A stretch of 64,000 bases of DNA from an uncultured Syntrophomonadaceae bacterium (GTDB taxonomy: Bacteria > Bacillota > Dethiobacteria > DTU022), in contig CAZAKI010000006.1 in the NCBI GenBank assembly GCA_964485855.1, positions 3,995-67,994 of the forward strand, written 5' to 3'. Below the pieces are notes generated by a model. That model was not told the origin of the DNA. It searched no databases and worked only from the letters and a program-made list of their open reading frames with translations. Shown piece after piece: positions 1,536 through 64,000 of the stretch; within the stretch, counting starts at the first letter, position 1, and every line of letters starts with the position of its first letter. Both the position numbers and the translations under genes were made by a program.

Positions 1536-1746
1536 AGTTAAAATTAATTTATGTAATTAATGGTTTAAATTGTAAAAAGCTTTTCCTGTCTTGGTGCTGA
1601 GGTAAACCTATCTAGCTGTTCTGGTTGTTCTGAAGAATGATTGCAACTTTTATCAGAGGCAGGGTTTATGTCGGAATGTCATCAATTCCCTTAAAAAATG
1701 ATTAAATAATGGTCTAATTATTCTATCGAACGTGGAGGATAGTGTT

Positions 1747-2394
1747 TTGAAAGAACTATTGCAAAATCTTGCTGCATCAATCCTCAGTGGGAACCGAAAT
1801 TCAGCTTTAGAATGGGCTGAACGGGGGCTGCAATCCGGTGTCAATCCCCTGGATCTAATTAGTAACGGCTTAACTGTCGGCTTAAATGAAGTCGGTGATA
1901 AGTTTGAATGCGGTGAATATTATCTACCGGATATGATGTTGGCTGCCGAAGCAATGAATGCGGTTTTGGAGATGCTTGCTCCGCACCTGGAAAAAGAGCG
2001 AACCGCTTCTGAACAGGTGGTTAAAGTGGTGATCGGCACGGTAAAAGGTGATCTGCATTCAATCGGCAAAGACATTGTGATCATGATGCTGAAAGCAGCG
2101 GGCATGGAAATCATCGATTTGGGGGTTGATGTCTCCGCTGCTGACTTTGTAAACTCGGTAGTGGAAAAAGAGGCAGCAGTGCTCGGCATATCTGCCCTGA
2201 TGACAACGACTATTCAGGAACAGAAAAAGATTATCGATCTTCTGTCTGAAAAAAACATACGTAACAAGGTAAAGGTAATTGTTGGCGGAGCGCCGCTTTC
2301 CGAGGAGTGGGCCATTAAGATTGGGGCCGATGCTTATGCGGCGGATGCCATAGCGGGAGTAAAAAAAATAAAAGCGCTGTTAAACCTGGCCTAA
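1747..2394 (+). CDS. Methyltransferase cognate corrinoid protein (MttC/MtbC family)
   Basis: B12-binding DLHSIG motif, N-terminal cap 'GDKFECGEYYLPDMMLAAEAM', SALMTTT, VGGAP. Likely start is TTG 1747 after GGAGG (ORF track start 1732). Confidence 0.93.
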   Translation: MKELLQNLAASILSGNRNSALEWAERGLQSGVNPLDLISNGLTVGLNEVGDKFECGEYYLPDMMLAAEAMNAVLEMLAPHLEKERTASEQVVKVVIGTVKGDLHSIGKDIVIMMLKAAGMEIIDLGVDVSAADFVNSVVEKEAAVLGISALMTTTIQEQKKIIDLLSEKNIRNKVKVIVGGAPLSEEWAIKIGADAYAADAIAGVKKIKALLNLA

Positions 2395-2411
2395 GGAAGG
2401 GGTAGAAACTG

Positions 2412-3845
2412 TTGCGCTTTGAACCTTTGTCAGCAAAAGACCTGCAGCTAATCCATGATATGACCCTGAAAGTCTTAAAGGAAACCGGAACATTGGTTGA
2501 GGGTGAAGAGGCCAGAAATATCCTGCTTTCAGCCGGTTGCCAAGAAAAAAGCAAGCGGATTCTTTTCCCACCACAGCTGGTTGAGGATTGTCTTGCTTGT
2601 CGAGTCCCGGTGATTCTTTACGGGGTCGATGAAACCATTGTGATGCCGCTTACTGAAGCAACCCGATCCTATACCCATAATTTTGGCTCAGTTTCTGTTT
2701 TACTGGATCCTCAGGATAACCGGATCCGTGAAGCATTGCTCCAGGATCTAATCGATTTTATTAAGATTAGCGATTCCCTGACCTATCCGGACATGGTTGT
2801 GCCGAGTTTAAGGCCAACCGACCTGCCGGAAGAGATTGCCTCTTTGGCCATGACGGCATATGCTCTGCAGTATACCAGGAAACCGGTTGATATCGGCACA
2901 GCCTCTGACCGGTGGGAGATCGGCTATCTAATTCGGATTGCTGCAGCAGTCAGAGGGGGAATCCAGAATTTAGTGGAGAAGCCGATGGGAACCCTGTCCA
3001 TATCACCACTCAGTCCACTAAACTTCCCGGCTGATATATCGGAGGCTATAGTTGAAGGCGCTCGCTCCGGTTTGCCGGTAACCATGCTACCCTGCCCGAC
3101 CCGCGGTTTAACTGCCCCGATTACCCTAGCCGGAGGCCTGGTGCTGCAGAATGCTGAGCAACTGGCCTTTCTGACCCTGGCTCGCCTGGTCAACCGCACC
3201 ACCCCGCTGGTTTATACCTGTCGCCTGGCCGGTGCCAATATGCGCACCGGTTGTGTGAGCGGCCGGGATCCCGATATCGGTTTTTCCGGGGCCTGCGCCG
3301 CCCAACTGGCTCGTTCTTACGGGCTACCGTCGGGAGTATATGGCCTCGATACCGGCTCAGCCCAACCGGATCTGCAGTCGGGTTACGAACGGGCTATTAA
3401 TGGTCTTTTCCCGGTGTTAGCGGGCGCTACTTTTGTTTCCGGTATGGGTGCCCTGAATGCCGGTTTACTGGCTAGTGCCGAACAGTTGATAATTGACGAT
3501 GAGATCTACGCCATGATCAAACACCGTCAAAATGGGCTTGAGGTAAGCGCCGAGGCTATCGGGGCCGAGGTAATAGACGCAGTTATGTCCGGTGGGCATT
3601 TCCTGGCCCAGGAACACACCCGGGATTACATGCGCCGGGGTGAAATCTATGCCGGACAGCTTGGTAATGAAGCACCTTTCGAGGAATGGCGGGCATCCGG
3701 ATCAATAACGGTCCGGGAGCAGGCTGGTGAGAAGATCAAGCAGCTGCTTGCCGGGCATCCAGGTGTGCTGGTCGAAGAATCAGTATGCCTTGAAATAGAA
3801 GCAATTCTAGAAGAAGCCAGATCTGAAAAAGAGATTCAGGCCTAA
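2412..3845 (+). CDS. Trimethylamine-methyltransferase (MttB) superfamily protein, non-pyrrolysine
   Basis: 477 aa; SPL, AP.TLAG.LV..NAE, PD.QSGYE and EQLIIDDEI motifs; no in-frame TAG. Confidence 0.9.
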   Translation: MRFEPLSAKDLQLIHDMTLKVLKETGTLVEGEEARNILLSAGCQEKSKRILFPPQLVEDCLACRVPVILYGVDETIVMPLTEATRSYTHNFGSVSVLLDPQDNRIREALLQDLIDFIKISDSLTYPDMVVPSLRPTDLPEEIASLAMTAYALQYTRKPVDIGTASDRWEIGYLIRIAAAVRGGIQNLVEKPMGTLSISPLSPLNFPADISEAIVEGARSGLPVTMLPCPTRGLTAPITLAGGLVLQNAEQLAFLTLARLVNRTTPLVYTCRLAGANMRTGCVSGRDPDIGFSGACAAQLARSYGLPSGVYGLDTGSAQPDLQSGYERAINGLFPVLAGATFVSGMGALNAGLLASAEQLIIDDEIYAMIKHRQNGLEVSAEAIGAEVIDAVMSGGHFLAQEHTRDYMRRGEIYAGQLGNEAPFEEWRASGSITVREQAGEKIKQLLAGHPGVLVEESVCLEIEAILEEARSEKEIQA

Positions 3846-19980: not shown

Positions 19981-21522
19981 TCAGATGCCGGCAACTCTGT
20001 TTTTGAGGGCTGCGAATACTATTTCATCAGGCAGTTCTGGTTTTAGCTTGCGGATCTGTTCAAGGCAAATCCTGGCCCCATAATCCATTCCCTGGCAGCC
20101 AGCCAGGAGAAGGACATCGCCGAGTCCGGTTTCGGCTAAACCAAGTGCAATAGCCTCAGAAAGAGATTCAAGGATTATTGTCTTCAGGCCGGCTTGATCC
20201 ATTACTGCTTGGAAAGTACTGATTTCTGCTTTTGTAACCGCATCTTTTTTATCCACATGATCGATACTCGTTGTGGCTATGATTCGGTTCAGTCCGAGTT
20301 TGGGAGCCCATCTGGCTATAGCTTCGGCGTTTTCGCGGTTGACAGTAACTCCACGGCTGCCCCTGATCGCATAAATCAGGTGCAGCTTTTTATAGTCCAT
20401 CATGCCTAAAGTTTCTAAGGTGACGTCAATATTGCCGCTGTTGGCAAAATGATCATCGATCACCATAAAATCGTCTTCAAAAATTAATTCAAAACGTCTT
20501 TCCACCCCTTTAAATATTTTCAGGGCTTTTTGAATGGTGGAAGCAGGTATTCCGTGGATCAGGGCAACCAGAACTGCCGCCATCGCATTATAAACACTGT
20601 GCAGCCCTAGAACTGATAATTTGATCATAAAAGTATCCGGCTGCCTGCTAAGGATTTCAGCTGGTACTGTCCGGGTTAAGTTTACTGTAAACTCAGCGCG
20701 GCCACTGCTTAAATCAAGATTCTGGACGAGACAATCTGCTTGCTGATTTTTTAAACCATAAGTCAGGGTCTTTGCCTTTGTTTCACTGATTAAAGCAGCT
20801 GTATAGGGACAATCAAGGTTTAGAACAGCCCACTGATTTTCAGTAGCTTCGCGTACCAGGCGGCTTTTTGCGCGATAATAAGCTTCGAAAGAACCATGCA
20901 GATCAATATGCTCGCGGCTAATATTATTTACCACCACAGTATTGAAATCTACGCAGCCAACCCTGTTCAGTTCAAGGCCGGATGAGGAGACTTCCATTAC
21001 GGCATAGCCAACTTTATTCTTGACCATTTCGCTGAAATAAAAGTGTAAATCCAAAGATTCAGGTGTTGTTAGGGTTGCCGGGCGAACTAGTGCCCCCGTT
21101 TTTATGATTACTGTGCCGATTAAACCGGTATTTAATCCCTGTTCTTCGAAGATAGTATTAATCATATAAGTAGTAGTTGTTTTACCGTTGGTTGCGGTTA
21201 CGCCGGTAACAGTCAGTTTGCTTGAAGGATGGTCATAAAAGCGATCGGCCAGGGCGGCAAGCGCCAATCGGCTGTCTTTCACTTTATACTGGGGGATGGG
21301 GATATTGTCCTGAAAATACTCTACTACAGCGGCTACAGCCCCGTTTTTAGCTGCTTCTGCCAGGTAAAGATGCCCGTCGGTTTGATAACCTCTAATGCAG
21401 ACAAAAAGAGTTCCCGGTTTAACCCGGCTGGAATGATAAGCAAGGCTGGTAATCTTTTTTGTATCGCCCGTCGTGCGGTCAATAATCGGGATTACTTCCA
21501 TCAAATGATCATTAGTTGCCAT
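19981..21522 (-). CDS. MurE-like Mur ligase with divergent amino-acid-binding domain
   Basis: N-terminal SSRVKPGTLFVCIRG.QTDGH, TATNGKTT P-loop, TTPES, MEVSS, GVERRFE; canonical DYAH and DNPR motifs replaced. Confidence 0.85.
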   Translation of the reverse strand: MATNDHLMEVIPIIDRTTGDTKKITSLAYHSSRVKPGTLFVCIRGYQTDGHLYLAEAAKNGAVAAVVEYFQDNIPIPQYKVKDSRLALAALADRFYDHPSSKLTVTGVTATNGKTTTTYMINTIFEEQGLNTGLIGTVIIKTGALVRPATLTTPESLDLHFYFSEMVKNKVGYAVMEVSSSGLELNRVGCVDFNTVVVNNISREHIDLHGSFEAYYRAKSRLVREATENQWAVLNLDCPYTAALISETKAKTLTYGLKNQQADCLVQNLDLSSGRAEFTVNLTRTVPAEILSRQPDTFMIKLSVLGLHSVYNAMAAVLVALIHGIPASTIQKALKIFKGVERRFELIFEDDFMVIDDHFANSGNIDVTLETLGMMDYKKLHLIYAIRGSRGVTVNRENAEAIARWAPKLGLNRIIATTSIDHVDKKDAVTKAEISTFQAVMDQAGLKTIILESLSEAIALGLAETGLGDVLLLAGCQGMDYGARICLEQIRKLKPELPDEIVFAALKNRVAGI

Positions 21523-21622
21523 TATTTTATTCCTTCTTGTCTTTTTCCTACTATATTCGTCGATGATCGAAAAAAACCTTTGTTAACTAGTTATGGCAGA
21601 ACTAAAATGATCAGAAAATCAA

Positions 21623-21646
21623 GAAGCCCGTCGGTAGACGGGCTTC
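21623..21646 (-). terminator. Intrinsic terminator downstream of ferredoxin
   Basis: GAAGCCCGTC-GGTA-GACGGGCTTC perfect 10-bp stem, followed by a T-rich run on the minus strand. Confidence 0.85.
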
Positions 21647-21671
21647 ATTGCGATTTTTGAAAAGTTAAGTC

Positions 21672-21857
21672 TTACTCGCTAACTTCGATCGCTTCGGTTG
21701 GGCATTCCTCGGCCGCCTCACGAACTTTTTCTTCATGTTCAGCCGGTACCGGATTAACTTTTACTTCAGCCTTTTCATCACCCAGCTCAAAAACCTCCGG
21801 GCAGATGTCTTCACAAATACCGCATGCGCTGCAATCGTCGTTTACTTTAACCTCCAT
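21672..21857 (-). CDS. Single-cluster ferredoxin
   Basis: 61 aa acidic; CSACGICEDICPEVF ... CPTEAI. Confidence 0.95.
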   Translation of the reverse strand: MEVKVNDDCSACGICEDICPEVFELGDEKAEVKVNPVPAEHEEKVREAAEECPTEAIEVSE

Positions 21858-22055
21858 GCTAATGCCTCCTCCAAAAAGATAGTGTTTATTTCCACCATAT
21901 TTTATTCGCTAACAATTTCATTTTCCCTTTTTTTATTAATAATATTTATGATGCACCAGAGCTTACCAGGTGAACAATCTACACTATGATCAATTATTAT
22001 GCCAGCTCTTTAAGTGAAGTGGCAGCTAATAATTATGGTGACCGGCTGCTGATTT

Positions 22056-22117
22056 TGTGAATAATGGCTAACAGATAATGGTACCGGGTTTCAGGTTGTG
22101 GATAAGTCTGTGCATAC
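22056..22117. promoter_or_regulatory. Cluster of three co-oriented DnaA boxes
   Basis: TGTGAATAA (22056-64) and TGTGGATAA (22097-105) match TTATNCACA on the minus strand; TGTGCATAC (22109-117) has one mismatch. Confidence 0.6.
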
Positions 22118-22312
22118 TGTTAGTAGAACAGGTATTTGTTTTTTGAAAGCCTTATATCATAGGCCAAAAAAAAATGATCATTAAATTTTGGTTACATAAT
22201 GTTTAAACATAAATAATCACTTCCGTCGGTTGTCAGCTTAAGATTGCTAATAATAGGTAAATATGATATTAATATTATTAATAAGCTTAATAAGCCGAAG
22301 GGTGGTGAGAAA

Positions 22313-22393
22313 GTGCGCATTTCTTTATTACTGCTCGTAACGATGATTATATCTTTATTCCTGGTTTCCGGTTGCAGCAGCGGTGGCTGATAA
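22313..22393 (+). CDS. Unannotated small lipopeptide MRISLLLLVTMIISLFLVSGCSSGG(U), candidate C-terminal selenocysteine
   Basis: GTG start after AAGGGTGGTG RBS; hydrophobic core plus lipobox VSG|C; TGA (22388-90) immediately followed by TAA; SECIS-like hairpin downstream. Confidence 0.7.
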
Positions 22394-22394
22394 A

Positions 22395-22434
22395 CTACAA
22401 CGAGAAACCGGTCTGGTTTCATCCCATGTTGTAG
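22395..22434 (+). promoter_or_regulatory. Candidate bacterial SECIS element
   Basis: Lower stem CTACAAC/GTTGTAG, internal bulge, upper stem GAAACC/GGTTTC, apical loop GGTCT starting 19 nt after the TGA. Confidence 0.65.
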
Positions 22435-22481
22435 AGAATTATTTTTGTTGTTAAAGCAGCAAACTATCTGTAGATATAACT

Positions 22482-22507
22482 AATGGGGCTTTATTCAGCC
22501 CCATTTT
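22482..22507. terminator. Probable bidirectional terminator between the small lipopeptide gene and the M24 peptidase
   Basis: AATGGGGCT-TTATTC-AGCCCCATT, followed by TT, between convergent genes. Confidence 0.7.
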
Positions 22508-22536
22508 ACATTTTAAACATGACTGTTCGGTCGATT

Positions 22537-23724
22537 TCATATCACTTGCAGCTGATCACTAAAAACTGTAATCTGCTCTAAACGTTCCGATCCAACCACA
22601 AAGGTATCTTCAATGCCCACTGTGCCTTCGCCCGGGAAAACAAATTTTGGTTCCAGGGCGAACACCATCCCTTCTTCAAGCGGTATATCCAAACCATGGG
22701 CGATCACCGGAAGTTCATCCAACTCCAGCCCAACTCCATGACCTACAAAGCTCACTTTTTCCAGGCAACCCATAAAATGTTTTTCTAACCCAGCTTTTTT
22801 AACCATTGCTGAGGCTTTTTGATAAAGACTGCTACCGTTTACTCCCGGTTTTCCAAGTTCGGCCAGAGTATTTTTAATACTGACGGCCAGATCATAGGCG
22901 GTTTTTAATTGGGGTGCGGGTCTACCGAGACTGAAGATTCTGGTTTGGTCTACCATGTAGCCTTCAAGCACGGTGACAAAATCAACCAGGATCGGCTCAT
23001 TCTTGTTAATCACATTATGGCCGGCTCCCTGGGGATATGAAGGGTTTAAACCTGATCCTCCTGTTGGTCCGTCAAAAAAACTGGAGATTGAAGCGTTTTT
23101 CCCGCTCATTACATGGCCAAAATAAAGCTCCTGGTTAAAACCCCTCATTCTTACCGCACCTTGATGTCCAAGTTTACGGGCTTTTAATTCAAGCTCGCCG
23201 GCCAACTCTATTTCTCTAAGACCGGGCTTGATAATTTGTGCGGCATAATGAAAAACCTCTTTCCCGACGCTTGCTGCTTTTTTCATTAGGCTAATTTCAT
23301 AATCTGATTTAACGGCTCTGATTAGGCGAATTATTTTGGCTGTATCAATCATCCTGTAGTCATCTAGTAATTTCTGGTAACGGAAATAGAGACTGGCCGG
23401 TAAAACGTCAGTTTCCAGCCCAATAGCTGAGCCCTTGGGTATCAGGTCGGAAATCAATGCTGCCAGTTGATCCAGCCCCTCGTAAGGGATAATTTGTTTT
23501 AAGGAGCTTTCTTCCCGGGCCCTTGCCAGAGATCTTTTGACAATTAGGGTTGAATCCCCCTCTGCCGGGATAAAAAGATAGGCATTCTGTGCGGTGCCGC
23601 TGAAATAAAAGAGATCAACTCTTTGGACAATCAATGCCCCGGCAATTGAATACTGCTGCAGCTGATCCTGTAGTTTTGCAATGCGTCGGCTAATTTCTTT
23701 GGCCGGTGTTGAAAAGGCCATCAA
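22537..23724 (-). CDS. Xaa-Pro aminopeptidase family protein (M24)
   Basis: Creatinase-like N-terminus (RVDLFYFSGT), RAVKSDYEI, VDF..DQTR, GHGVGLELDE, EPK, GIEDT. Confidence 0.92.
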   Translation of the reverse strand: MMAFSTPAKEISRRIAKLQDQLQQYSIAGALIVQRVDLFYFSGTAQNAYLFIPAEGDSTLIVKRSLARAREESSLKQIIPYEGLDQLAALISDLIPKGSAIGLETDVLPASLYFRYQKLLDDYRMIDTAKIIRLIRAVKSDYEISLMKKAASVGKEVFHYAAQIIKPGLREIELAGELELKARKLGHQGAVRMRGFNQELYFGHVMSGKNASISSFFDGPTGGSGLNPSYPQGAGHNVINKNEPILVDFVTVLEGYMVDQTRIFSLGRPAPQLKTAYDLAVSIKNTLAELGKPGVNGSSLYQKASAMVKKAGLEKHFMGCLEKVSFVGHGVGLELDELPVIAHGLDIPLEEGMVFALEPKFVFPGEGTVGIEDTFVVGSERLEQITVFSDQLQVI

Positions 23725-40899: not shown

Positions 40900-42663
40900 T
40901 TGTATTCAACATTCGGAAAGCTCCTGCTAATTGATTTAACTAAAGCTGACATTGTTGAGAAAGAGCTGGAGGAAGATATATTTCAAAAGTACCTTGGCGG
41001 TAAAGGTCTTGGCAGTTACCTGCTGATGAAAATGTTGCCCCCGGGTACTGATCCACTGGCGCCGGAGAATGTCTTGATTTTTACAACAGGTCCGGCAGCT
41101 GATACCACTCTGGCTCCTGCTTCCCGTTTTGGGGTTTTTAGTAAGTCACCGGCTACCGGTTTCTATTCGGAATCGTACAGCGGCGGACACCTGCCTCCTG
41201 TCATGAAAAGAACCGGCTATGATGCCATTGTTATTACCGGTGCAGCTGAACATCCCTGTTATATCTCTATATCTGAAGAGGGCGTTAATTTTTATGATGC
41301 CAATGGAATCTGGGGTCAAGAATCATATCCCGCAGAAGAAGAGATCATCAAGGCCGTAGGGATTAAAGGTGCACAGGCCCTGGTAATTGGGCCGGCCGGG
41401 GAAAAGAAATTGCCTTTTGCCTGCATCAAGAATAATCGCTGGCGCAGCGCCGGAAGGACCGGCCTGGGTGCAGTTATGGGTTCGAAGCATCTTAAGGGAA
41501 TAGTATTCAGCGGCAGTGCTAAAGTAGCGCCTTTTGACGAAGAAGCGTTAAATACCTGGAGCCGTAATTTTTTCCAGCGCTATAAAGATTCACCCGAAGC
41601 AAGACTTTATCAAGAGAAGGGCACCCCTGCCCTGGTTGCCGTAACAAATAGCAGCGGTTGTTTTCCAACCCGTTACTGGTCTGCCGGTAAGCTTGAAGGT
41701 TGGGAGAAGATCAGCGCAGATTATATGCAGGAAAAAATGGCTGTAAAATCGAGGGGCTGCTACCGGTGTTTCTTTGCCTGTGGTAAACTGACTACGGTTA
41801 AGGAAGGCAGGCACCTGGGGCTTAAGGTTGAAGGTCCTGAGTTTGAAACCATTTATGCTTTTGGCGGACTCTGCTGTTTGCCGCAAATGGAAGAGATCCT
41901 TTACTTAAATGATCTCTGTGACCGTTGGGGTATCGATACAATAAGTGCCGGTAATATATCTGCTTTTGCGATCGAAGCTGGCTTGCGCGGCAAACTTGAC
42001 AATCCGCCCAGATACGGAGACGCTGACTCTATAGCAGGTTTTTTGGAACAGGTAGTTGAAGGTAAGGGTGACGGTAAACTTTTTGCCGGTGGCCTTAAAG
42101 AGGCAGCCAGACTCCTTGAGATGGAAGATTTTGCAATTCACGTCAAGGGGCTTGAACCTGCCGGTTATGACCCCAGGGTTTTAAAAGGGATGGGACTTGC
42201 TTATGCCACATCGGATCGGGGTGCCTGTCACCTAAGAGCTACCTTTTATAAACCGGAATTGAGCGGGATGATTGATCCGGGGCAGATAAAAGGTAAAGCC
42301 AGGATGTTTATTGATTATGAAGATCGCTTAAATATCTATGACTGTTTAATATTTTGCCGATTTTATCGCGATCTTATCCATTGGGAGCAGTTGATAGAAA
42401 TTCTTTACCTGCTTACCGGCAATCGATACAGCTTAGCTGATTTACACAGCTTTGCATCAAGAATTCAAACCCTGACCAGGCTATTTAACTATCGCGAAGG
42501 AGCTACGAGGGCTGATGATCTTTTACCGCGTAGACTGGTGACGGAAGCCATTAATGATGGTGAAAATCTAATCAGCCAGGAAGAACTGGAGCATATGTTG
42601 CAAGATTATTACCTGCTGCATGGTTGGGATCAAAATGGTGTTCCGCCATTGAAGCAGTTCTGA
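40900..42663 (+). CDS. aor: Aldehyde:ferredoxin oxidoreductase (W/Mo-pterin AOR family)
   Basis: YLGGKG, KSPATG, IGPAGE, GRTGLGAVMGSK, C..C..AC, EGPEFET, DRGACHL. Confidence 0.93.
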   Translation: MYSTFGKLLLIDLTKADIVEKELEEDIFQKYLGGKGLGSYLLMKMLPPGTDPLAPENVLIFTTGPAADTTLAPASRFGVFSKSPATGFYSESYSGGHLPPVMKRTGYDAIVITGAAEHPCYISISEEGVNFYDANGIWGQESYPAEEEIIKAVGIKGAQALVIGPAGEKKLPFACIKNNRWRSAGRTGLGAVMGSKHLKGIVFSGSAKVAPFDEEALNTWSRNFFQRYKDSPEARLYQEKGTPALVAVTNSSGCFPTRYWSAGKLEGWEKISADYMQEKMAVKSRGCYRCFFACGKLTTVKEGRHLGLKVEGPEFETIYAFGGLCCLPQMEEILYLNDLCDRWGIDTISAGNISAFAIEAGLRGKLDNPPRYGDADSIAGFLEQVVEGKGDGKLFAGGLKEAARLLEMEDFAIHVKGLEPAGYDPRVLKGMGLAYATSDRGACHLRATFYKPELSGMIDPGQIKGKARMFIDYEDRLNIYDCLIFCRFYRDLIHWEQLIEILYLLTGNRYSLADLHSFASRIQTLTRLFNYREGATRADDLLPRRLVTEAINDGENLISQEELEHMLQDYYLLHGWDQNGVPPLKQF

Positions 42664-42714: not shown

Positions 42715-43263
42715 ATGAAACAGGCTACAGCTACTGATTTAAAAGTGTTAGCGCAGGAACACCCGGTTTTTGCCGTCAAAGAAATTGTTGAAAAGCATAT
42801 TAAAAGCAAAGGGGCGGCAATACCGATTCTGCAGGAGATTCAAAATGTTTTCGGCTATATTTCACCGGAACTGCTGCAGAGAGCCGGAGAATTTTCTGGT
42901 ATTCCGGTAAACGAACTTTACAGTATCGTTACATTTTATGCCCAGTTCAGGTTGGAACCGATTGGAGAGCATCTGATCCAAGTTTGCCATGGGACAGCCT
43001 GCCACTTAGCCGGTGCGGAACGAATCACTGAGTCAATTCAGTTCGAAACGAAAGCCGGTCCGGGGAAAACCAGCGATGACGGTCTGTTTACAATGGAAAA
43101 GGTAGCCTGCCTCGGCTGCTGCAGTCTGGCACCGGTACTGACCATTGACGAGGAAACTTATGGACAGCTTTCTCCCGAGAAAGTTCGTAAAATTATCAAG
43201 GATGTGCGACGGAAAAACCCTGAGCAATCTGCTTCAAAGGGGGATAATGAAAGTGCAGGATAA
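42715..43263 (+). CDS. NuoE/HydC-like 2Fe-2S subunit (StnA-like)
   Basis: IPILQEIQ, TFYAQF, VCHGTACH, ACLGCCSLAP. Confidence 0.9.
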   Translation: MKQATATDLKVLAQEHPVFAVKEIVEKHIKSKGAAIPILQEIQNVFGYISPELLQRAGEFSGIPVNELYSIVTFYAQFRLEPIGEHLIQVCHGTACHLAGAERITESIQFETKAGPGKTSDDGLFTMEKVACLGCCSLAPVLTIDEETYGQLSPEKVRKIIKDVRRKNPEQSASKGDNESAG

Positions 43264-45049
43264 ACAGTATAGGGTCAAAGTTGGCCTTGCAACCTGCGGG
43301 ATTGCCGGCGGAGCAGCTAAAGTTTATCAAATTTTAAAAGATCGCCTGCAAGACAGCGGGATTGAAGTGGAACGAACCGGTTGTATCGGGATGTGCTACA
43401 ATGAACCGCTGGTCGAGGTAATTGAAGCTGACGGCCAAAGTTATCTTTATGGAAATTTAGAGCCGGAAGACAGCTTGCGTATTGTCGATGAGCATATCGA
43501 AAAAGGCAAACCGGTAAGAGATTTGCTTGTGCTTGGTCGAAGTGCTGAAACCGATGATCAGACTTTTTTAGAGAAACAACATCGAATTTTGCTTAAAAAT
43601 TGCGGCCATATCGATCCAGAAGAAATTCAAAGTTACATCGATGCCGATGGTTACAAAGGTTTAAGAAGAGCCCTGGAGCAAATGACTCCGGAAGCAGTAA
43701 TCGAAGAAATAAAGCAATCCGGGTTAAGAGGCAGAGGTGGTGCAGGTTTCCCAACGCATCTGAAATGGAGCCTGACCCGTCAAGCCGAGGGGACCCAGAA
43801 GTACATTGTTTGCAATGCAGACGAGGGTGACCCTGGTGCTTTTATGGATCGCAGTGTTCTTGAAGGTGATACACACAGCGTGTTGGAGGGAATGCTAATT
43901 GCCGGGTACGCCATCGGTGCCTCGGTCGGCTATGTATATATCAGGGCCGAATATCCGCTGGCCATTCGCCGCTTAAAGATTGCCATCGGGCAGGCTGAAG
44001 AAAGAGGCTTACTTGGTAAAAATATTCTTGGTTCCAACTATAATTTTGAAATATTTATCCGGGAAGGAGCCGGAGCTTTTGTTTGTGGCGAGGAAACAGC
44101 TCTTTTAATGTCGATTGAGGGGAAAAGAGGGATGCCTCGCTTTCGGCCGCCGTTTCCGGCTCAAAAAGGTCTTTTTGGTTGTCCCACATCGATCAATAAT
44201 GTTGAAACATTTGCCAATGTGCCCCGCATACTGCATCTGGGGGCTTCGGCCTACAATCAGCTTGGGACCGAGGAGAGCAAGGGGACCAAGGTTTTTGCCC
44301 TGGCGGGAAAAATCAGGCGGGGTGGTTTAATCGAGATTCCAATGGGCACAACCATCAATGAAATAGTATTCGATATTGGAGGAGGAATTTCAACCGGAAA
44401 ACCGTTTAAGGCAATCCAAACCGGTGGTCCTTCCGGTGGCTGTATCCCAGCGGAGTTGGGCGATACTCCCGTTGATTACGAATCGCTTAAAAAGATTGGG
44501 GCGATCATGGGTTCCGGTGGTCTGCTGGTGATGGATGAAGAAACCTGTATGGTTGATGTTGCCAGGTATTTTCTCTCATTCACCAGGGAAGAATCTTGTG
44601 GCAAGTGTACCTTTTGCCGGGCCGGTACAAACCAGATGTTAAAGATTTTAGAGCGCATCTCAGAGGGTAAGGGACGGGAAGAAGATGTCGATTTGTTGAT
44701 CGAATTGGCTGAAAAGATTAAAGCCGGCTCTCTTTGTGGTCTTGGACAGACAGCGCCAAACCCGGTTCTGACCACTATTAAATATTTTCGAAATGAATAT
44801 GATGCCCATGTTAAGGAAAAGTACTGCCCAGCCAAAAAATGTAAGGCTCTGATTACCTATGAAATTAATCCGGAAGCCTGCACCGGTTGTACTCTATGCG
44901 CCAGAAATTGTCCGGTTGATGCTATTTCTGGCATCAAAAAGGAAGCACACGTTATTGATCAGACAATCTGTATACGTTGCGGTCTTTGCATCAACAGTTG
45001 TAAATTTGATGCTGTAAATGTAAATTCGAAACCGAAGCAGCCTGTATAA
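43247..45049 (+). CDS. NuoF/HydB-like FMN/NADH-binding subunit (StnB-like)
   Basis: N-terminal thioredoxin-like 2Fe-2S; GRGGAGFP; NADEGDPGAFMDR; ESCGKCTFCR; C-terminal 2x[4Fe-4S]. Start ATG 43247. Confidence 0.92.
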   Translation: MKVQDKQYRVKVGLATCGIAGGAAKVYQILKDRLQDSGIEVERTGCIGMCYNEPLVEVIEADGQSYLYGNLEPEDSLRIVDEHIEKGKPVRDLLVLGRSAETDDQTFLEKQHRILLKNCGHIDPEEIQSYIDADGYKGLRRALEQMTPEAVIEEIKQSGLRGRGGAGFPTHLKWSLTRQAEGTQKYIVCNADEGDPGAFMDRSVLEGDTHSVLEGMLIAGYAIGASVGYVYIRAEYPLAIRRLKIAIGQAEERGLLGKNILGSNYNFEIFIREGAGAFVCGEETALLMSIEGKRGMPRFRPPFPAQKGLFGCPTSINNVETFANVPRILHLGASAYNQLGTEESKGTKVFALAGKIRRGGLIEIPMGTTINEIVFDIGGGISTGKPFKAIQTGGPSGGCIPAELGDTPVDYESLKKIGAIMGSGGLLVMDEETCMVDVARYFLSFTREESCGKCTFCRAGTNQMLKILERISEGKGREEDVDLLIELAEKIKAGSLCGLGQTAPNPVLTTIKYFRNEYDAHVKEKYCPAKKCKALITYEINPEACTGCTLCARNCPVDAISGIKKEAHVIDQTICIRCGLCINSCKFDAVNVNSKPKQPV

Positions 45050-45096: not shown

Positions 45097-48000
45097 ATGC
45101 CCAAGGTAGAGATCACCATTAACGGGAAAAAAATAATGGCTGAAAAAGGCAGTAACCTGCTTGAAACAGCCTTGCAGAATGGAATTGATATTCCCCACCT
45201 TTGTTATGATCCGCGGATTAAACCGTTTGGATCTTGCCGCCTCTGTTTTGTTGACACTGGTGGACCAAGAGGACCGGTTGCTGCTTGCGGAACCGTGGTG
45301 GAAGAAGGTATGAATGTAGTAACTGATAACGAATCATTGTATGAACTGCGTAAAACTGCTCTGGAACTTTTACTTTCAGAACATTGCGGTGATTGTATTG
45401 CTCCCTGTCAAGAAGCCTGTCCTGCCCATATCGATATCCAGGGTTACATTGCCCTGCTCGACAGGAAAGAATATAAGAAGGCAGCCGATTTAATCAAAGA
45501 AAAGATGCCTTTACCTTCAATCTGCGGTCGTGTTTGTCCGCGATTTTGCGAAGATCAATGCAGGAGAAACATGATTGATGATCCGGTTAACATCTGCGAC
45601 CTGAAAAGATTTGCCGGAGATTATGACTTGGAAATGATTGATTCCTACAAAACAGATGCTGCTGCTGATAGTGGTAAAAAAGTAGCAGTGGTTGGTGGTG
45701 GGCCGGCGGGTTTGACTGCTGCGTACTACCTGGCTTTGAAAGGCCACCAGGTGACCTTATATGATCGTGGTCCAAAGCTTGGCGGAATGTTGCGCTATGG
45801 TATCCCTGAATACCGCCTGCCGAAAGCGCTGCTTGACCGGGAGATTAACCTGATAGCCGGACTCTGCCGGGAGGTCCGCTTGGGAGAAGTATTTGGAAAA
45901 GATTTTACCATTGATGATCTAACTGATCAATACGATGCCGTCTTCCTTGGTTTAGGCTGTCAGTCAGCCCAGGGGATGGGTCTCGAAGGAGAAGATCGGC
46001 CTGGTATCCTCAAAGGGATTGATTTTTTACGCTGTGTGGCCGAAGGTAATCCTCCGGTCCTGGGCAAAAAAGTGGCGGTTGTCGGTGGCGGCAATACGGC
46101 AATGGATGCCGCCAGAACAGCGCTTCGTTTAGGGGCAGAAGAAGTTCATTTAATCTACAGGCGCAGCCGCAATGAAATGCCGGCAGCCCTCATAGAAATC
46201 GAAGAAGCAGAAGAAGAAGGTATTAAATTTGATTACCTGACCAACCCGGTCTCGGTTTTGGGCACCGACTGTGTTATGGGTGTAGAATGTGTGCAGATGG
46301 AGTTGGGTGAACCCGATGAAAGTGGTCGTTGTCGTCCCTTGGCAGTTGAAGGATCAGAGTTCAAACTTGAAGTCGATAATGTGATCATGGCGATCGGACA
46401 AACACTGGATCAGGAAAGTACCTGTTCATGCAATCTCGAGCTAAAAGGAAAAACGATGGCCGCCTGCTCTGATACCGGTCAAACTTCTGTTGAAAAAGTA
46501 TTTGCCGCCGGGGATGCTGTAACCGGTCCGGCTACAGTTGTTGAAGCCGTTGGGGCAGCAAGGAAAACTGCACTGGCCATGGACCGATACCTTCAGGGTC
46601 AAATGGTTGAATCTGAACCGCACATCTACAATTGCTCGATGGGCCGGCTTGACCAGCTTGATCCCGATGATTTTTCTGAATATCCGAAAGAAGAGCGTTT
46701 GCCGGTGCACCATCTAGCCCCGGAAGAGCGCAAGAAAAGTTTTGCAGAATATAACCAGGGGTTGAGTGAAGAAGATGTTGTCAAAGAAACAAAGCGCTGC
46801 CTTTCCTGCGGTTGTCAGGATGTTTTTGAGTGTTCCTTACGCCGATTGGCTACTGATCTCAACCTCGATAACGAACGGTTGGGGACAGAAAAGAAAAGAT
46901 ATCCCATCAGGAAAGATCACCCCTTTATTGTGCATGATCCCAACAAATGCGTGCTTTGTGCGAACTGTGTCCGTATTTGCCATGAAGTTCAGGGGGCTAA
47001 TGCACTCTGCTTGGTTAATCGCGGTTATGATACGCTAGTCAGTCCAACTTTACAGCTGCCTCTAAATGAGACTACCTGTGAATCTTGTGGACAGTGTGTA
47101 TCGGCTTGTCCTACCGGGGCTCTTACCGCAAAAGGCTATTTCTCCAAACCCGGTCCCTGGTTTCCCGATCGAGTGGTTGAAAGTACCTGCACACGTTGTG
47201 GGATCGGCTGCCGCATCGAGTTGAATGTAGTGGCGAACAGGGTAACAGCGATAAATTCTCCTTTGCGTCAGGATCTAAATGATGGCAATTTGTGTCTTAG
47301 AGGTCGATATGAGTCGCTTTTTGCTCAAGACACCGATCGGATCCTGAAACCATTTGTCAATTTTGACGGACAAAAAAAACAAGAAATAAAATGGCCGGAA
47401 GCATTAGAAAGGGCCGCTTCCGGATTGTTACAGGTTAAAAAAGAATCTGGTCCGGAAAATATTGCTGTTGTTATCTCATCATCCCTGTGTAACGAAGAGA
47501 TGATCCTGGCCCAGAAATTAGCTACAGAGCTTATTGGGACAGATCAGTTTTACGCAACGGGGTTACCTTTGTCAGCAGCAAATAAAAGCATTAAATCTTT
47601 GTCTTACAAAAATATTGCTGAAAGCGATTTTATCCTGGTAATTGATGCCGACCTGCCTGAAGATTATCCGATTGTGGCTCAAAAAATACGTAAGGCCCTG
47701 AGTCAAGATGCAAAACTTGCTTTTATTGGGACGGAAGTAAATCGTTTGTTTAAAGATGCAGATGTTTCTGTGCTTTACAGCCCGGGGAAACTTAAGGCAA
47801 TATTAAAAGTGTTGCTGTACTATGAAAGTGGCAAAGAAAAAGTCCTTTCACTCAGTGATGCTGAGATTACTGCAGCTTTAGCCTCTTTGCCCCAGGATCT
47901 TTCTGATAATCCGGCTGTTTTGGTGCAGATAGCCTCTTTATTCTTAAATTCAAACAAGCCGGTAATCGTTGTTGATGGAGATAAAACCGGCAGCGAAACA

Positions 48001-48525
48001 TATGACCTTTTAGCAGAACTTTACAGACAGGCCGGAAATGATCTTAACCCCGGCATTCTTGCTCTGCACAGGGGTGGAAATACTGCAGGTCTGATTGAAC
48101 TGGGTTTTGCCACAGGACTGGTGGATGAAAATGTTTTAGCTCCTGGTTGCATTAATGATCAGGTAATGGTGGCAGACCTGTTTAAGCAGATGAAAGGTTT
48201 ACTGCTGATTGGCGATGAGCCGGCAGCACTGATTGATCTCGCAGCACCAGATAGTTTCATTGTGACGTTAGCTGCTTATCATCAATCCAAACTGCTCGCT
48301 TCCGATCTGGTTTTACCATTGGCCGGCTATTTTGAAACAACCGGAACGGTAGTTAACGCTGAAAGAAGGCTTTGTGAACTAAGGCCAGCCTATGCGCCGC
48401 TTGCGGGGAAAAGCAATTCAACGTTGCTGATTGACTTCGCGACAGCTCTAGGCGGCACCTTGGAACCAGTAACAAAAGCTCAGGTTGTCGAAAGAATGAG
48501 TCGGCATTTATTTTTTGAAGCCTAA
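45097..48525 (+). CDS. NuoG-like/GltD(NfnB)-like fusion with cofactor-less molybdopterin-oxidoreductase fold (StnC-like)
   Basis: N-terminal 2Fe-2S; CQEACPAH...CGRVCPRFCE; GGGPAG and GGGNTAMD FAD/NADP motifs; two further 4Fe-4S motifs; C-terminal Mo-bisPGD-like region lacking the FDH ligand motif. Confidence 0.8.
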   Translation: MPKVEITINGKKIMAEKGSNLLETALQNGIDIPHLCYDPRIKPFGSCRLCFVDTGGPRGPVAACGTVVEEGMNVVTDNESLYELRKTALELLLSEHCGDCIAPCQEACPAHIDIQGYIALLDRKEYKKAADLIKEKMPLPSICGRVCPRFCEDQCRRNMIDDPVNICDLKRFAGDYDLEMIDSYKTDAAADSGKKVAVVGGGPAGLTAAYYLALKGHQVTLYDRGPKLGGMLRYGIPEYRLPKALLDREINLIAGLCREVRLGEVFGKDFTIDDLTDQYDAVFLGLGCQSAQGMGLEGEDRPGILKGIDFLRCVAEGNPPVLGKKVAVVGGGNTAMDAARTALRLGAEEVHLIYRRSRNEMPAALIEIEEAEEEGIKFDYLTNPVSVLGTDCVMGVECVQMELGEPDESGRCRPLAVEGSEFKLEVDNVIMAIGQTLDQESTCSCNLELKGKTMAACSDTGQTSVEKVFAAGDAVTGPATVVEAVGAARKTALAMDRYLQGQMVESEPHIYNCSMGRLDQLDPDDFSEYPKEERLPVHHLAPEERKKSFAEYNQGLSEEDVVKETKRCLSCGCQDVFECSLRRLATDLNLDNERLGTEKKRYPIRKDHPFIVHDPNKCVLCANCVRICHEVQGANALCLVNRGYDTLVSPTLQLPLNETTCESCGQCVSACPTGALTAKGYFSKPGPWFPDRVVESTCTRCGIGCRIELNVVANRVTAINSPLRQDLNDGNLCLRGRYESLFAQDTDRILKPFVNFDGQKKQEIKWPEALERAASGLLQVKKESGPENIAVVISSSLCNEEMILAQKLATELIGTDQFYATGLPLSAANKSIKSLSYKNIAESDFILVIDADLPEDYPIVAQKIRKALSQDAKLAFIGTEVNRLFKDADVSVLYSPGKLKAILKVLLYYESGKEKVLSLSDAEITAALASLPQDLSDNPAVLVQIASLFLNSNKPVIVVDGDKTGSETYDLLAELYRQAGNDLNPGILALHRGGNTAGLIELGFATGLVDENVLAPGCINDQVMVADLFKQMKGLLLIGDEPAALIDLAAPDSFIVTLAAYHQSKLLASDLVLPLAGYFETTGTVVNAERRLCELRPAYAPLAGKSNSTLLIDFATALGGTLEPVTKAQVVERMSRHLFFEA

Positions 48526-63874: not shown

Positions 63875-64000
63875 AAATCAGAAATTCAGGCAGGAATTAT
63901 GATAATTATCACGAAAGCTATTAAGTGTTTTTTATTTAGTTGGATTAACCATTTTTGACCTCGCTCTCAGAAGCTTGGTTGCAACTGGGTTGTTATTAAT

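Follow-up and report, generated by a model that had tools for sequence, protein, structure and literature searches.

Can a bacterial gene of 26 codons encode a peptide that ends in selenocysteine (Sec), with the RNA element that would recode its UGA lying wholly beyond the true stop? The question is raised by a short open reading frame (ORF) at positions 22313-22393 (+ strand) of a 64,000-nt stretch of contig CAZAKI010000006.1 (assembly GCA_964485855.1) from an uncultured Syntrophomonadaceae bacterium; this whole stretch is referred to below as the window. The ORF encodes MRISLLLLVTMIISLFLVSGC-SSGG, followed by TGA and directly afterwards by TAA. Read as a 26-codon mini-gene, it consists of a GTG start at 22313 and 24 further sense codons, giving MRISLLLLVTMIISLFLVSGCSSGG, and then the TGA. 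A first-pass annotation of the window had suggested that this TGA is a Sec codon, that the hairpin behind it is a selenocysteine insertion sequence (SECIS), and that the product is a small lipopeptide. Direct reading of the sequence recovered each element of that description at the same positions. We favour, with somewhat better than even confidence, the reading that this locus is a selenoprotein mini-gene with a C-terminal Sec, a SECIS located entirely in the 3' untranslated region and a lipid-anchored product.

Conservation of the mini-gene and of its UGA codon

Related loci were collected from one-genome-per-species and metagenome collections with the neighbouring aminopeptidase as anchor (individual loci carry L numbers here). 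A small ORF at the same place and in the same orientation was found in 14 distinct loci, and a 15th copy (L045/L046) was recovered by a covariance model trained on 13 hairpins, that of L045 not among them (E = 2e-4). The 15 distinct copies are syntenic, each lying between the genes for a 61-aa ferredoxin and an M24 aminopeptidase, and come from independent soda-lake metagenomes assigned to Dethiobacteria or 'Syntrophomonadaceae'. At a median pairwise DNA identity of 61% across the mini-ORF, every copy has a start codon after a strong ribosome-binding site, a promoter-like element and a terminator of its own. All end at the same place after 25-27 sense codons (26-28 residues with Sec included); the alternative that homologues run on as a long lipoprotein, which would have made the window's ORF a truncated pseudogene, found no example among them.

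The encoded peptides share one or two Lys or Arg residues, an uncharged hydrophobic stretch and a lipobox ending in Gly-Cys, followed by a tail of the form x(1-2)-G-G that reads N-G-G-V in two of the 15. With U standing for Sec, the predicted mature peptides are CSSGGU, CTSGGU, CNGGU, CTTGGU, CSTGGU, CTPGGU, CNGGVU, CNTGGU, CATGGU and CGGGGU. Synonymous drift is evident at the cleavage site, where the Gly before the Cys is encoded by GGT, GGC, GGA or GGG and the Cys itself by TGC or TGT. Codon usage of this kind points to selection on the protein and not on the DNA, and the mini-gene is almost certainly a real, translated gene.

The first stop codon is TGA in all 15 homologues. In each of them the adjacent codon is also an in-frame stop, which is TAA in eight copies (including the window, at 22391-22393), TAG in six and TGA in one. 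The drift of this next codon among TAA, TAG and TGA implies that stops are free to change on the same tree, yet the first one never does. The window's ordinary genes use TGA less than either other stop, in 9 of 46 cases, and a second in-frame stop directly after the first is found in only two of the 46 as against 15/15 of the mini-gene copies. A TGA that never varies, backed by a true stop that is always present, is the pattern to be expected if the TGA, here at 22388-22390, serves as the last sense codon, so that it is read through and the protein ends one residue later. Conservation of the TGA and the hairpin among relatives had been proposed as a test of the Sec reading, and it held: all 15 copies have the TGA, the second stop and a covarying hairpin at a steady distance.

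In L045/L046 (4215-4220, - strand) the codon after the proposed Sec codon is itself TGA (TGA-TGA, then GTT TAG). This additional TGA may simply terminate translation; in principle it could also specify another Sec.

Carriers of the mini-gene have an aminopeptidase at least 61% identical to that of the window and keep the ferredoxin-aminopeptidase synteny, and all derive from soda-lake or similar assemblies. Among these carriers are the lineages in GenBank assemblies SKOR01, PWEB01, SKPU01 and LKMJ01; others are represented by IMG contigs Ga0334885_1000012, Ga0207421_10000027 and Ga0114946_10000014 and by ENA ERZ27256778 k141_1859189. Among aminopeptidase relatives of at most 60% identity the synteny is lost, asparagine synthase or other genes occupy the site, and neither mini-ORF nor hairpin was found there. 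The five ferredoxin homologues that were looked up (at most 84% identity) have asparagine synthase, SpoIID or other genes upstream, and no mini-ORF or hairpin.

A covarying hairpin behind the UGA

The core of the proposed SECIS (22404-22420, + strand) is a 6-bp upper stem, GAAACC (22404-22409) with GGTTTC (22415-22420), closed by the loop GGTCT (22410-22414), the first G of which falls at +23 when the T of the TGA is counted as +1. In the window a lower stem, CTACAAC (22395-22401) with GTTGTAG (22428-22434), extends the whole hairpin to 22395-22434. This structure is the minimum-free-energy fold of its segment, at -14.5 kcal/mol and z = -2.5 against shuffles. Both stems of the two-stem hairpin in the first-pass annotation are therefore present in the window, and its upper stem and loop are conserved, but the lower stem is specific to the window and is missing from the consensus of the 14 relatives.

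The 6-bp stem is found in all 15 copies and grows to 7 bp if the first and last loop bases pair. Its sequence varies among copies (GAAACC/GGTTTC, GGGGCC/GGCTCC, GGAGTC/GACTCC, GGAACC/GGTTCC and GGAGCC/GGTTCC), and three of the six stem pairs show compensatory changes on both sides. The loop reads GGUNN in 14 of the 15 copies and AGUUC in L047. Its first base lies at +22 to +26 from the U of the UGA (L038 and L045 being counted from their sequences), and the sequence of the spacer between UGA and hairpin is not conserved. Stem cells are paired in 98.7% of cases, compared with 32-58% in slid controls, and 0 of 500 shuffles matched the observed paired fraction or the covariation score. Given the 50 nt from the TGA onward and no further aid, RNAalifold arrived at the same helix and at no other consensus structure. 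A covariance model based on the hairpins of the relatives produced one significant match in the 64-kb window, at the site of the mini-gene (26.5 bits, E = 1.3e-5), and nothing comparable in ~390 kb of unrelated loci. Judged by these sequence statistics, the hairpin exceeds chance.

According to PMC4605307, bacterial SECIS elements have a stem of 6-8 bp and, in the loop, a conserved G that follows the UGA at a distance of about 20 nt. E. coli fdhF has 18 nt after its UGA and then GGUC, which puts the GGU at +22 to +24. The mini-gene hairpin, as aligned here, matches both the published description and the E. coli element in its geometry.

Other readings of the hairpin were tried and rejected. 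A tRNA T-arm fragment was considered; GGTTCGA is there, but its T-stem partner is not. If the stem concealed the Shine-Dalgarno sequence of an ORF farther on, a conserved start codon should follow, and none does; a leader peptide or attenuator would call for a same-strand gene downstream, of which there is none. As for a second selenoprotein gene, the window contained no further match to the covariance model and no credible split ORF with an in-frame TGA.

Expression signals and genomic context

A promoter-like element at 22244-22273 (+ strand) consists of a -35 hexamer TTGCTA (22244-22249), a 17-nt spacer and an extended -10 element TGATATTAAT (22264-22273). In the alignment of the 15 loci, TTGCNA and TGnTATTAAT recur with the same spacing just 5' of the ribosome-binding site, and the element probably acts as a promoter. 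The ribosome-binding site itself, GGGTGGTGAG (22300-22309, + strand), ends 3 nt 5' of the GTG; in the relatives it reads AAGGGGGTG or GAGGAGGTG, at equal distance to an ATG, GTG or TTG start. Downstream, an intrinsic terminator at 22482-22512 (+ strand) has a 9-bp stem, AATGGGGCT/AGCCCCATT, with its hairpin part at 22482-22505 and a T-rich tail, in agreement with the first-pass annotation, which had placed a terminator here separate from the putative SECIS. This terminator appears to close a transcript of ~230 nt and could also serve the convergent aminopeptidase gene. In the relatives, a stable hairpin and then a T-rich stretch are found ~50-110 nt 3' of the stop.

The mini-ORF is flanked by two genes on the - strand, encoding the 61-aa [4Fe-4S] ferredoxin (21672-21857) and the M24 aminopeptidase (22537-23724). 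It stands alone between them, divergent from the ferredoxin gene and convergent on the aminopeptidase gene. No gene has been called in the ferredoxin-aminopeptidase gap in assemblies with an identical aminopeptidase. The window comes from a Firmicute; its closest named relatives are soda-lake metagenome-assembled genomes labelled Syntrophomonadaceae, and the ferredoxin homologues carry the label Dethiobacteria. A 76-aa antisense ORF (22192-22422, - strand) overlaps the mini-gene and is probably accidental, because its length and sequence are not kept in its counterparts in L001 and L002.

Lipoprotein signal and predicted product

Residues 1-20 of the window's peptide (MRISLLLLVTMIISLFLVSG, 22313-22372, + strand) form a predicted type II, or lipoprotein, signal peptide with the lipobox L-V-S-G before Cys21. 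The predicted mature part, Cys21-Ser-Ser-Gly-Gly, is encoded by 22373-22387, and the Cys21 codon TGC (22373-22375) specifies the predicted lipidation site. The clean lipoprotein signal (VSG|C) that the first-pass annotation had reported is borne out across the family, with a Lys/Arg n-region, an uncharged core and a lipobox in all 15 homologues. A rule of the PS51257 type (PROSITE), taken as [LVI..][ASTVI..][GAS]-C in which the Cys falls at about residue 15-35, is passed by 14 of the 15 copies. In the family the Cys stands at position 21-23, one or two Lys or Arg residues occur within the first seven, and there is no Asp or Glu in any copy. Fourteen lipoboxes have Gly at -1 and Leu, Ile, Met, Val or Phe at -3. 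Lgt is reported to modify a synthetic 24-mer of the Lpp precursor with only three residues after the Cys, so the tail of the mini-gene peptide is a plausible Lgt substrate. The genes lgt and lspA were not found in the window; both are nearly universal in bacteria.

On the reading that we favour, the mini-gene would be transcribed independently and would yield a product of 25-27 residues with a lipoprotein signal peptide. UGA would serve as its last sense codon, to be decoded by SelB with Sec-tRNA(Sec) before the true stop is reached. SelB would be recruited by the hairpin in the 3' untranslated region ~20 nt downstream, a 6-bp stem with a GGU-initiated loop that remains entirely untranslated. 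We consider this decoding step highly probable. Since the lipobox is canonical, lipidation and cleavage before the Cys are also expected: given translation, it is quite likely that Lgt would place a diacylglycerol on the Cys thiol and that signal peptidase II would cut before the Cys. The predicted product is lipid-Cys-x(1-2)-Gly-Gly(-Val)-Sec-COOH, a peptide of five or six residues exposed on the external side of the cytoplasmic membrane, and that of the window itself would be Cys-Ser-Ser-Gly-Gly-Sec. Ribosomes stopping at the UGA would release the same lipopeptide minus Sec. In the full-length form, the Gly-Gly spacer would display a free, highly nucleophilic selenol at the membrane surface.

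Relation to known systems

The first-pass annotation had likened the peptide to SbtA (TIGR04081), the 'selenobiotic' or selenobacteriocin precursor, which is also a short peptide with a hydrophobic N-terminal part and a Sec near the C-terminus. SbtA is encoded beside a radical SAM maturase. The annotation had seen no such maturase in the window, and none of the 46 window ORFs scanned here matches a radical SAM family. Kinship with SbtA is not supported: there is no match to its hidden Markov model (HMM) at E <= 10, and the mini-gene has one terminal Sec and a lipobox, whereas the SbtA family has the motif SGUG and two Sec residues (review table, PMC13188914).

SaoC (NF040734), of the SAO system, mostly has lipoprotein-type signal peptides, and in three species it has a C-terminal Sec by way of UGA-UAG and a GGU-loop hairpin after the stop. 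This Sec is a prediction, as it is in the mini-gene family. SaoC proteins average 158 residues, end in CC or CU (Cys-Cys-COOH or Cys-Sec-COOH), occur mostly as Cys proteins and belong to a nine-gene SAO transporter neighbourhood. In contrast, members of the mini-gene family have five or six mature residues, end in G-G-U or G-G-V-U, have no Cys form, are solitary and have no match to the SaoC HMM. Haft, who in 2022 inferred the C-terminal Sec in the three SaoC proteins, noted that a C-terminal Sec is beyond what the PGAP/NCBI pipeline can annotate, named KCU-star as another Sec-terminated family, and gave at least ten examples and 100% TGA as criteria for a new selenoprotein family (bioRxiv 10.1101/2022.07.06.499078). 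The mini-gene family, as delimited by our alignments, has 15 examples and TGA in every one. A C-terminal Sec specified by a UGA-stop pair, with the SECIS after the stop, has been predicted before, for SaoC and KCU-star.

In KCU-star proteins (NF033934, DUF466/YbdD-like; Campylobacter and Helicobacter) Sec is likewise the last residue before the stop, and their SECIS must for that reason lie beyond the coding region. Their relatives include the small DUF466 proteins YbdD and YjiX of E. coli. KCU-star proteins end in K-C-U and have no reported signal peptide or lipobox, and the mini-gene gives no match to their HMM. The canonical SECIS elements of E. coli fdhF and Moorella thermoacetica fdhA share with the mini-gene hairpin a short stem and a GGU-containing loop ~20 nt after the UGA. 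In the RNA of the Moorella SelB co-crystal the loop is reported to be GGUCU, closed by a C-G pair, just as in the window hairpin. Once recoding has occurred, the ribosome goes on to translate the canonical elements, which are part of the reading frame, whereas the mini-gene element would be wholly untranslated.

Very small lipoproteins such as the entericidins EcnA and EcnB, LptM and Lpp have a signal peptide and a lipobox as well; their mature parts comprise at least 20 residues without Sec, compared with the five or six of the mini-gene. A man-made parallel is the Sel-tag, or recombinant thioredoxin reductase in E. coli, to which the mini-gene would be a natural counterpart. The Sel-tag of Arner and co-workers reportedly places Sec at or next to the C-terminus, followed by a stop and an untranslated bacterial SECIS, and this layout is reported to work with SelB.

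The family is absent from NCBIfam release 20, which gave only weak signal-peptide matches (YgdI/YgdR, Lpp/OprI and LptM; E 0.06-1.6), and is not among the 119 prokaryotic selenoprotein families tabulated in a 2026 review (PMC13188914). An exact look-up in a collection of 15 billion proteins found 0 of 10 submitted peptide sequences. The recoding mechanism is a known one; for a lipidated oligopeptide ending in Sec, and for a gene of this size, we found no counterpart.

Weighing the alternatives

Several observations weigh against a lipid-anchored selenopeptide. None of selA, selB, selC and selD was seen in the window and ~14 kb of flanks; these ~78 kb are a small part of a genome that is probably 2-3 Mb, and their lack of such genes does not amount to a negative result for the genome. 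Within this scope a tRNA scan gave Gln and His only, Pfam searches on the 46 window ORFs gave nothing relevant to the Sec machinery, and the sequence up to 10 kb beyond both window ends encodes an Rnf complex, an Mrp antiporter and a solute symporter but no Sec machinery. Motif searches for translational GTPases and SelD across 870 kb of loci gave no match, and the literature and supplements consulted gave nothing usable on Sec use in Dethiobacter or soda-lake Syntrophomonadaceae. In 870 kb of related loci there is no homologue with Cys in place of Sec, so the usual Sec/Cys pairing test is lost as a line of support; absence of a Cys form is common for Sec-only families. The hairpin has no Rfam match, either at the gathering threshold across the whole window or at E <= 10 in 21500-22800. 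The clade covariance model gives the E. coli fdhF SECIS only 2.1 bits, which makes it a clade-specific detector and not a general SECIS detector. The neighbouring genes provide no functional clue, and the mini-gene is co-directional with neither. On the side of export, L045 has Pro at lipobox position -2, and a precursor of 25 residues is, to our knowledge, shorter than any lipoprotein precursor known. Such a precursor would be complete while still in the ribosomal tunnel, so its export would have to be post-translational.

The lack of Sec machinery in ~78 kb, of a Cys homologue and of an Rfam SECIS match would suit a simpler account, in which the UGA is an ordinary stop, the product is only the lipopeptide Cys-Ser-Ser-Gly-Gly, the hairpin has some other task, for instance as a 3' element for mRNA stability or as a binding site for a regulatory protein or RNA, and the second stop acts as a safeguard. 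There is certainly competition between recoding and termination at UGA, and PMC4513850 puts recoding efficiency in E. coli at 30-40%. This account leaves unexplained why the first stop is TGA, the rarest stop in the window, in 15/15 copies beside a next stop that drifts, and why an instant second stop is universal here when ordinary genes so seldom have one. It also leaves unexplained why the GGU loop is held at +22 to +26 despite a free spacer sequence, and each copy already has a separate terminator downstream. We regard it as unlikely.

A second alternative accepts Sec insertion and takes the peptide to be neither lipidated nor cleaved. The product would then be a single-pass membrane micro-protein of 26-28 residues, the exofacial C-x(3-4)-U of which would cycle between selenol/thiol and selenenylsulfide, as does the C-terminal GCUG of animal thioredoxin reductase. 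Neither Cys nor Sec varies among the copies; the two stand 4-5 residues apart over a flexible Gly-Gly, and CxxU and UxxC redox pairs dominate the known prokaryotic selenoproteins (PMC13188914). The shortness of the precursor, unusual for Sec- or SRP-dependent export, and the deviation of L045 from the lipobox rule point the same way. A plain anchor, however, would have no need of the canonical lipobox found in 14 of 15 copies, nor of the Lys/Arg n-region and freedom from acidic residues found in all, and a Cys-Sec spacing that varies between three and four intervening residues is unusual for a fixed redox motif. We give this alternative a low probability.

That the locus is non-coding, whether as the remains of a lipoprotein gene of which only the 5' end is left or as a small RNA with an accidental frame, is very improbable: mature lipoproteins do often start with CSSGG-like sequences, so that a truncated gene would look similar, gene callers pass the ORF over, and the 10 peptide sequences looked up are absent from the protein collection, but frame, length, start and ribosome-binding site, lipobox and G-G tail are kept at ~61% DNA identity with synonymous changes, no homologue extends into a longer ORF, the locus has its own promoter-like element and terminator, and a pseudogene would not keep its frame over 15 lineages.

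Surrounding region

The intergenic region between the ferredoxin gene and the mini-ORF (21858-22243; see also L127, 2640-3010, and L139, 1890-2510) contains several sequence blocks common to all 15 loci. Among them are tandem DnaA-box-like 9-mers 3 nt apart, TGTGGATAA (22097-22105, exact to the consensus) and then TGTGCATAC; a third DnaA-like box, with one mismatch, lies at 22056-22064. Further conserved blocks are TTTATGGTTACTA, TCAATTnnCATGCCA, GTAGAACAGGTATTTG and GTTAACATAA, with TATTCGCTAA..TTTTCCCTTTTTT beside the ferredoxin start. Because the DnaA-box pair is kept in relatives that have no mini-ORF, it belongs to the ferredoxin side, where it may mark a DnaA-controlled promoter. Taken over its full length, the window shows no enrichment of DnaA boxes. 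An upstream TGG-N9-TGC was considered as a sigma-54 promoter but is better read as the tandem DnaA boxes. In one relative without the mini-ORF (L139/L140), a G+C-rich, structured-looking stretch (..GGATTGCAAATACCCTGAACGATAAGGGCAACCCTTCCGAAAGGAAGGTGCGCAAAGC..) lies at ~1900-2200, on the strand opposite to that of the ferredoxin and within a gap of 600 nt upstream of it.

Farther off, a 1142-aa fusion protein (45097-48525, + strand) combines 2Fe-2S, GltD-like flavoprotein and molybdopterin-oxidoreductase (formate-dehydrogenase-like) domains, with no Molydop_binding among its Pfam matches. It is preceded by NuoE-like and NuoF-like genes and an aldehyde:ferredoxin oxidoreductase (42715-45049, 40900-42663). 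It has no in-frame TGA and is for that reason not a Sec enzyme here. At 1732-3845 (+ strand) a corrinoid-binding protein is followed by an MTTB-family methyltransferase as an unbroken 477-aa ORF, which points to a non-pyrrolysine enzyme, for instance a glycine-betaine methyltransferase. Next come an ABC transporter of the oligopeptide type and several peptidases. The sequence just past the end of the window (63875-64000 onward; L120/L121, 11549-21386) encodes a complete Rnf complex (rnfCDGEAB-like) together with a multisubunit cation/proton antiporter of the Mrp type, which fit an anaerobic haloalkaliphile.

Implications

If Sec insertion and lipidation are both true, the mini-gene would encode the shortest known selenoprotein, with five or six mature residues. 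It would also be the first lipid-anchored oligopeptide in which a selenol is the only evident functional group, and hence a new type of membrane molecule, not one more redox enzyme. Its SECIS would be a natural bacterial element that acts wholly from an untranslated region, which bears on how bacterial arrangements compare with those of archaea and eukaryotes, and the locus would provide a compact natural cassette for C-terminal Sec tagging. The mini-gene is too short for the length limits of gene callers, and selenoprotein finders that require an ORF past the UGA or a Cys homologue are blind to such genes (PMC12013277, PMC13188914). Given these blind spots, more mini-genes of the UGA-stop-hairpin type may exist.

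The carriers are anaerobes of sulfidic, highly alkaline brines. One role that can be imagined for the peptide in such cells is that of an exofacial redox or chalcogen carrier that attacks, for example, the bonds of polysulfides, disulfides or peroxides; another is the binding of soft metals. No one of these roles is more than a tentative suggestion. As a possibility that we put at rather less than even, diacylglyceryl-Cys-x(1-2)-Gly-Gly(-Val)-Sec may be the smallest ribosomal selenoprotein, a genetically encoded 'selenolipid' that would place a mobile catalytic selenol in the outer leaflet. On the surface of these haloalkaliphilic anaerobes, such a 'selenolipid' could serve as a shuttle for sulfur or electrons, or in the detoxification of peroxides or soft metals.

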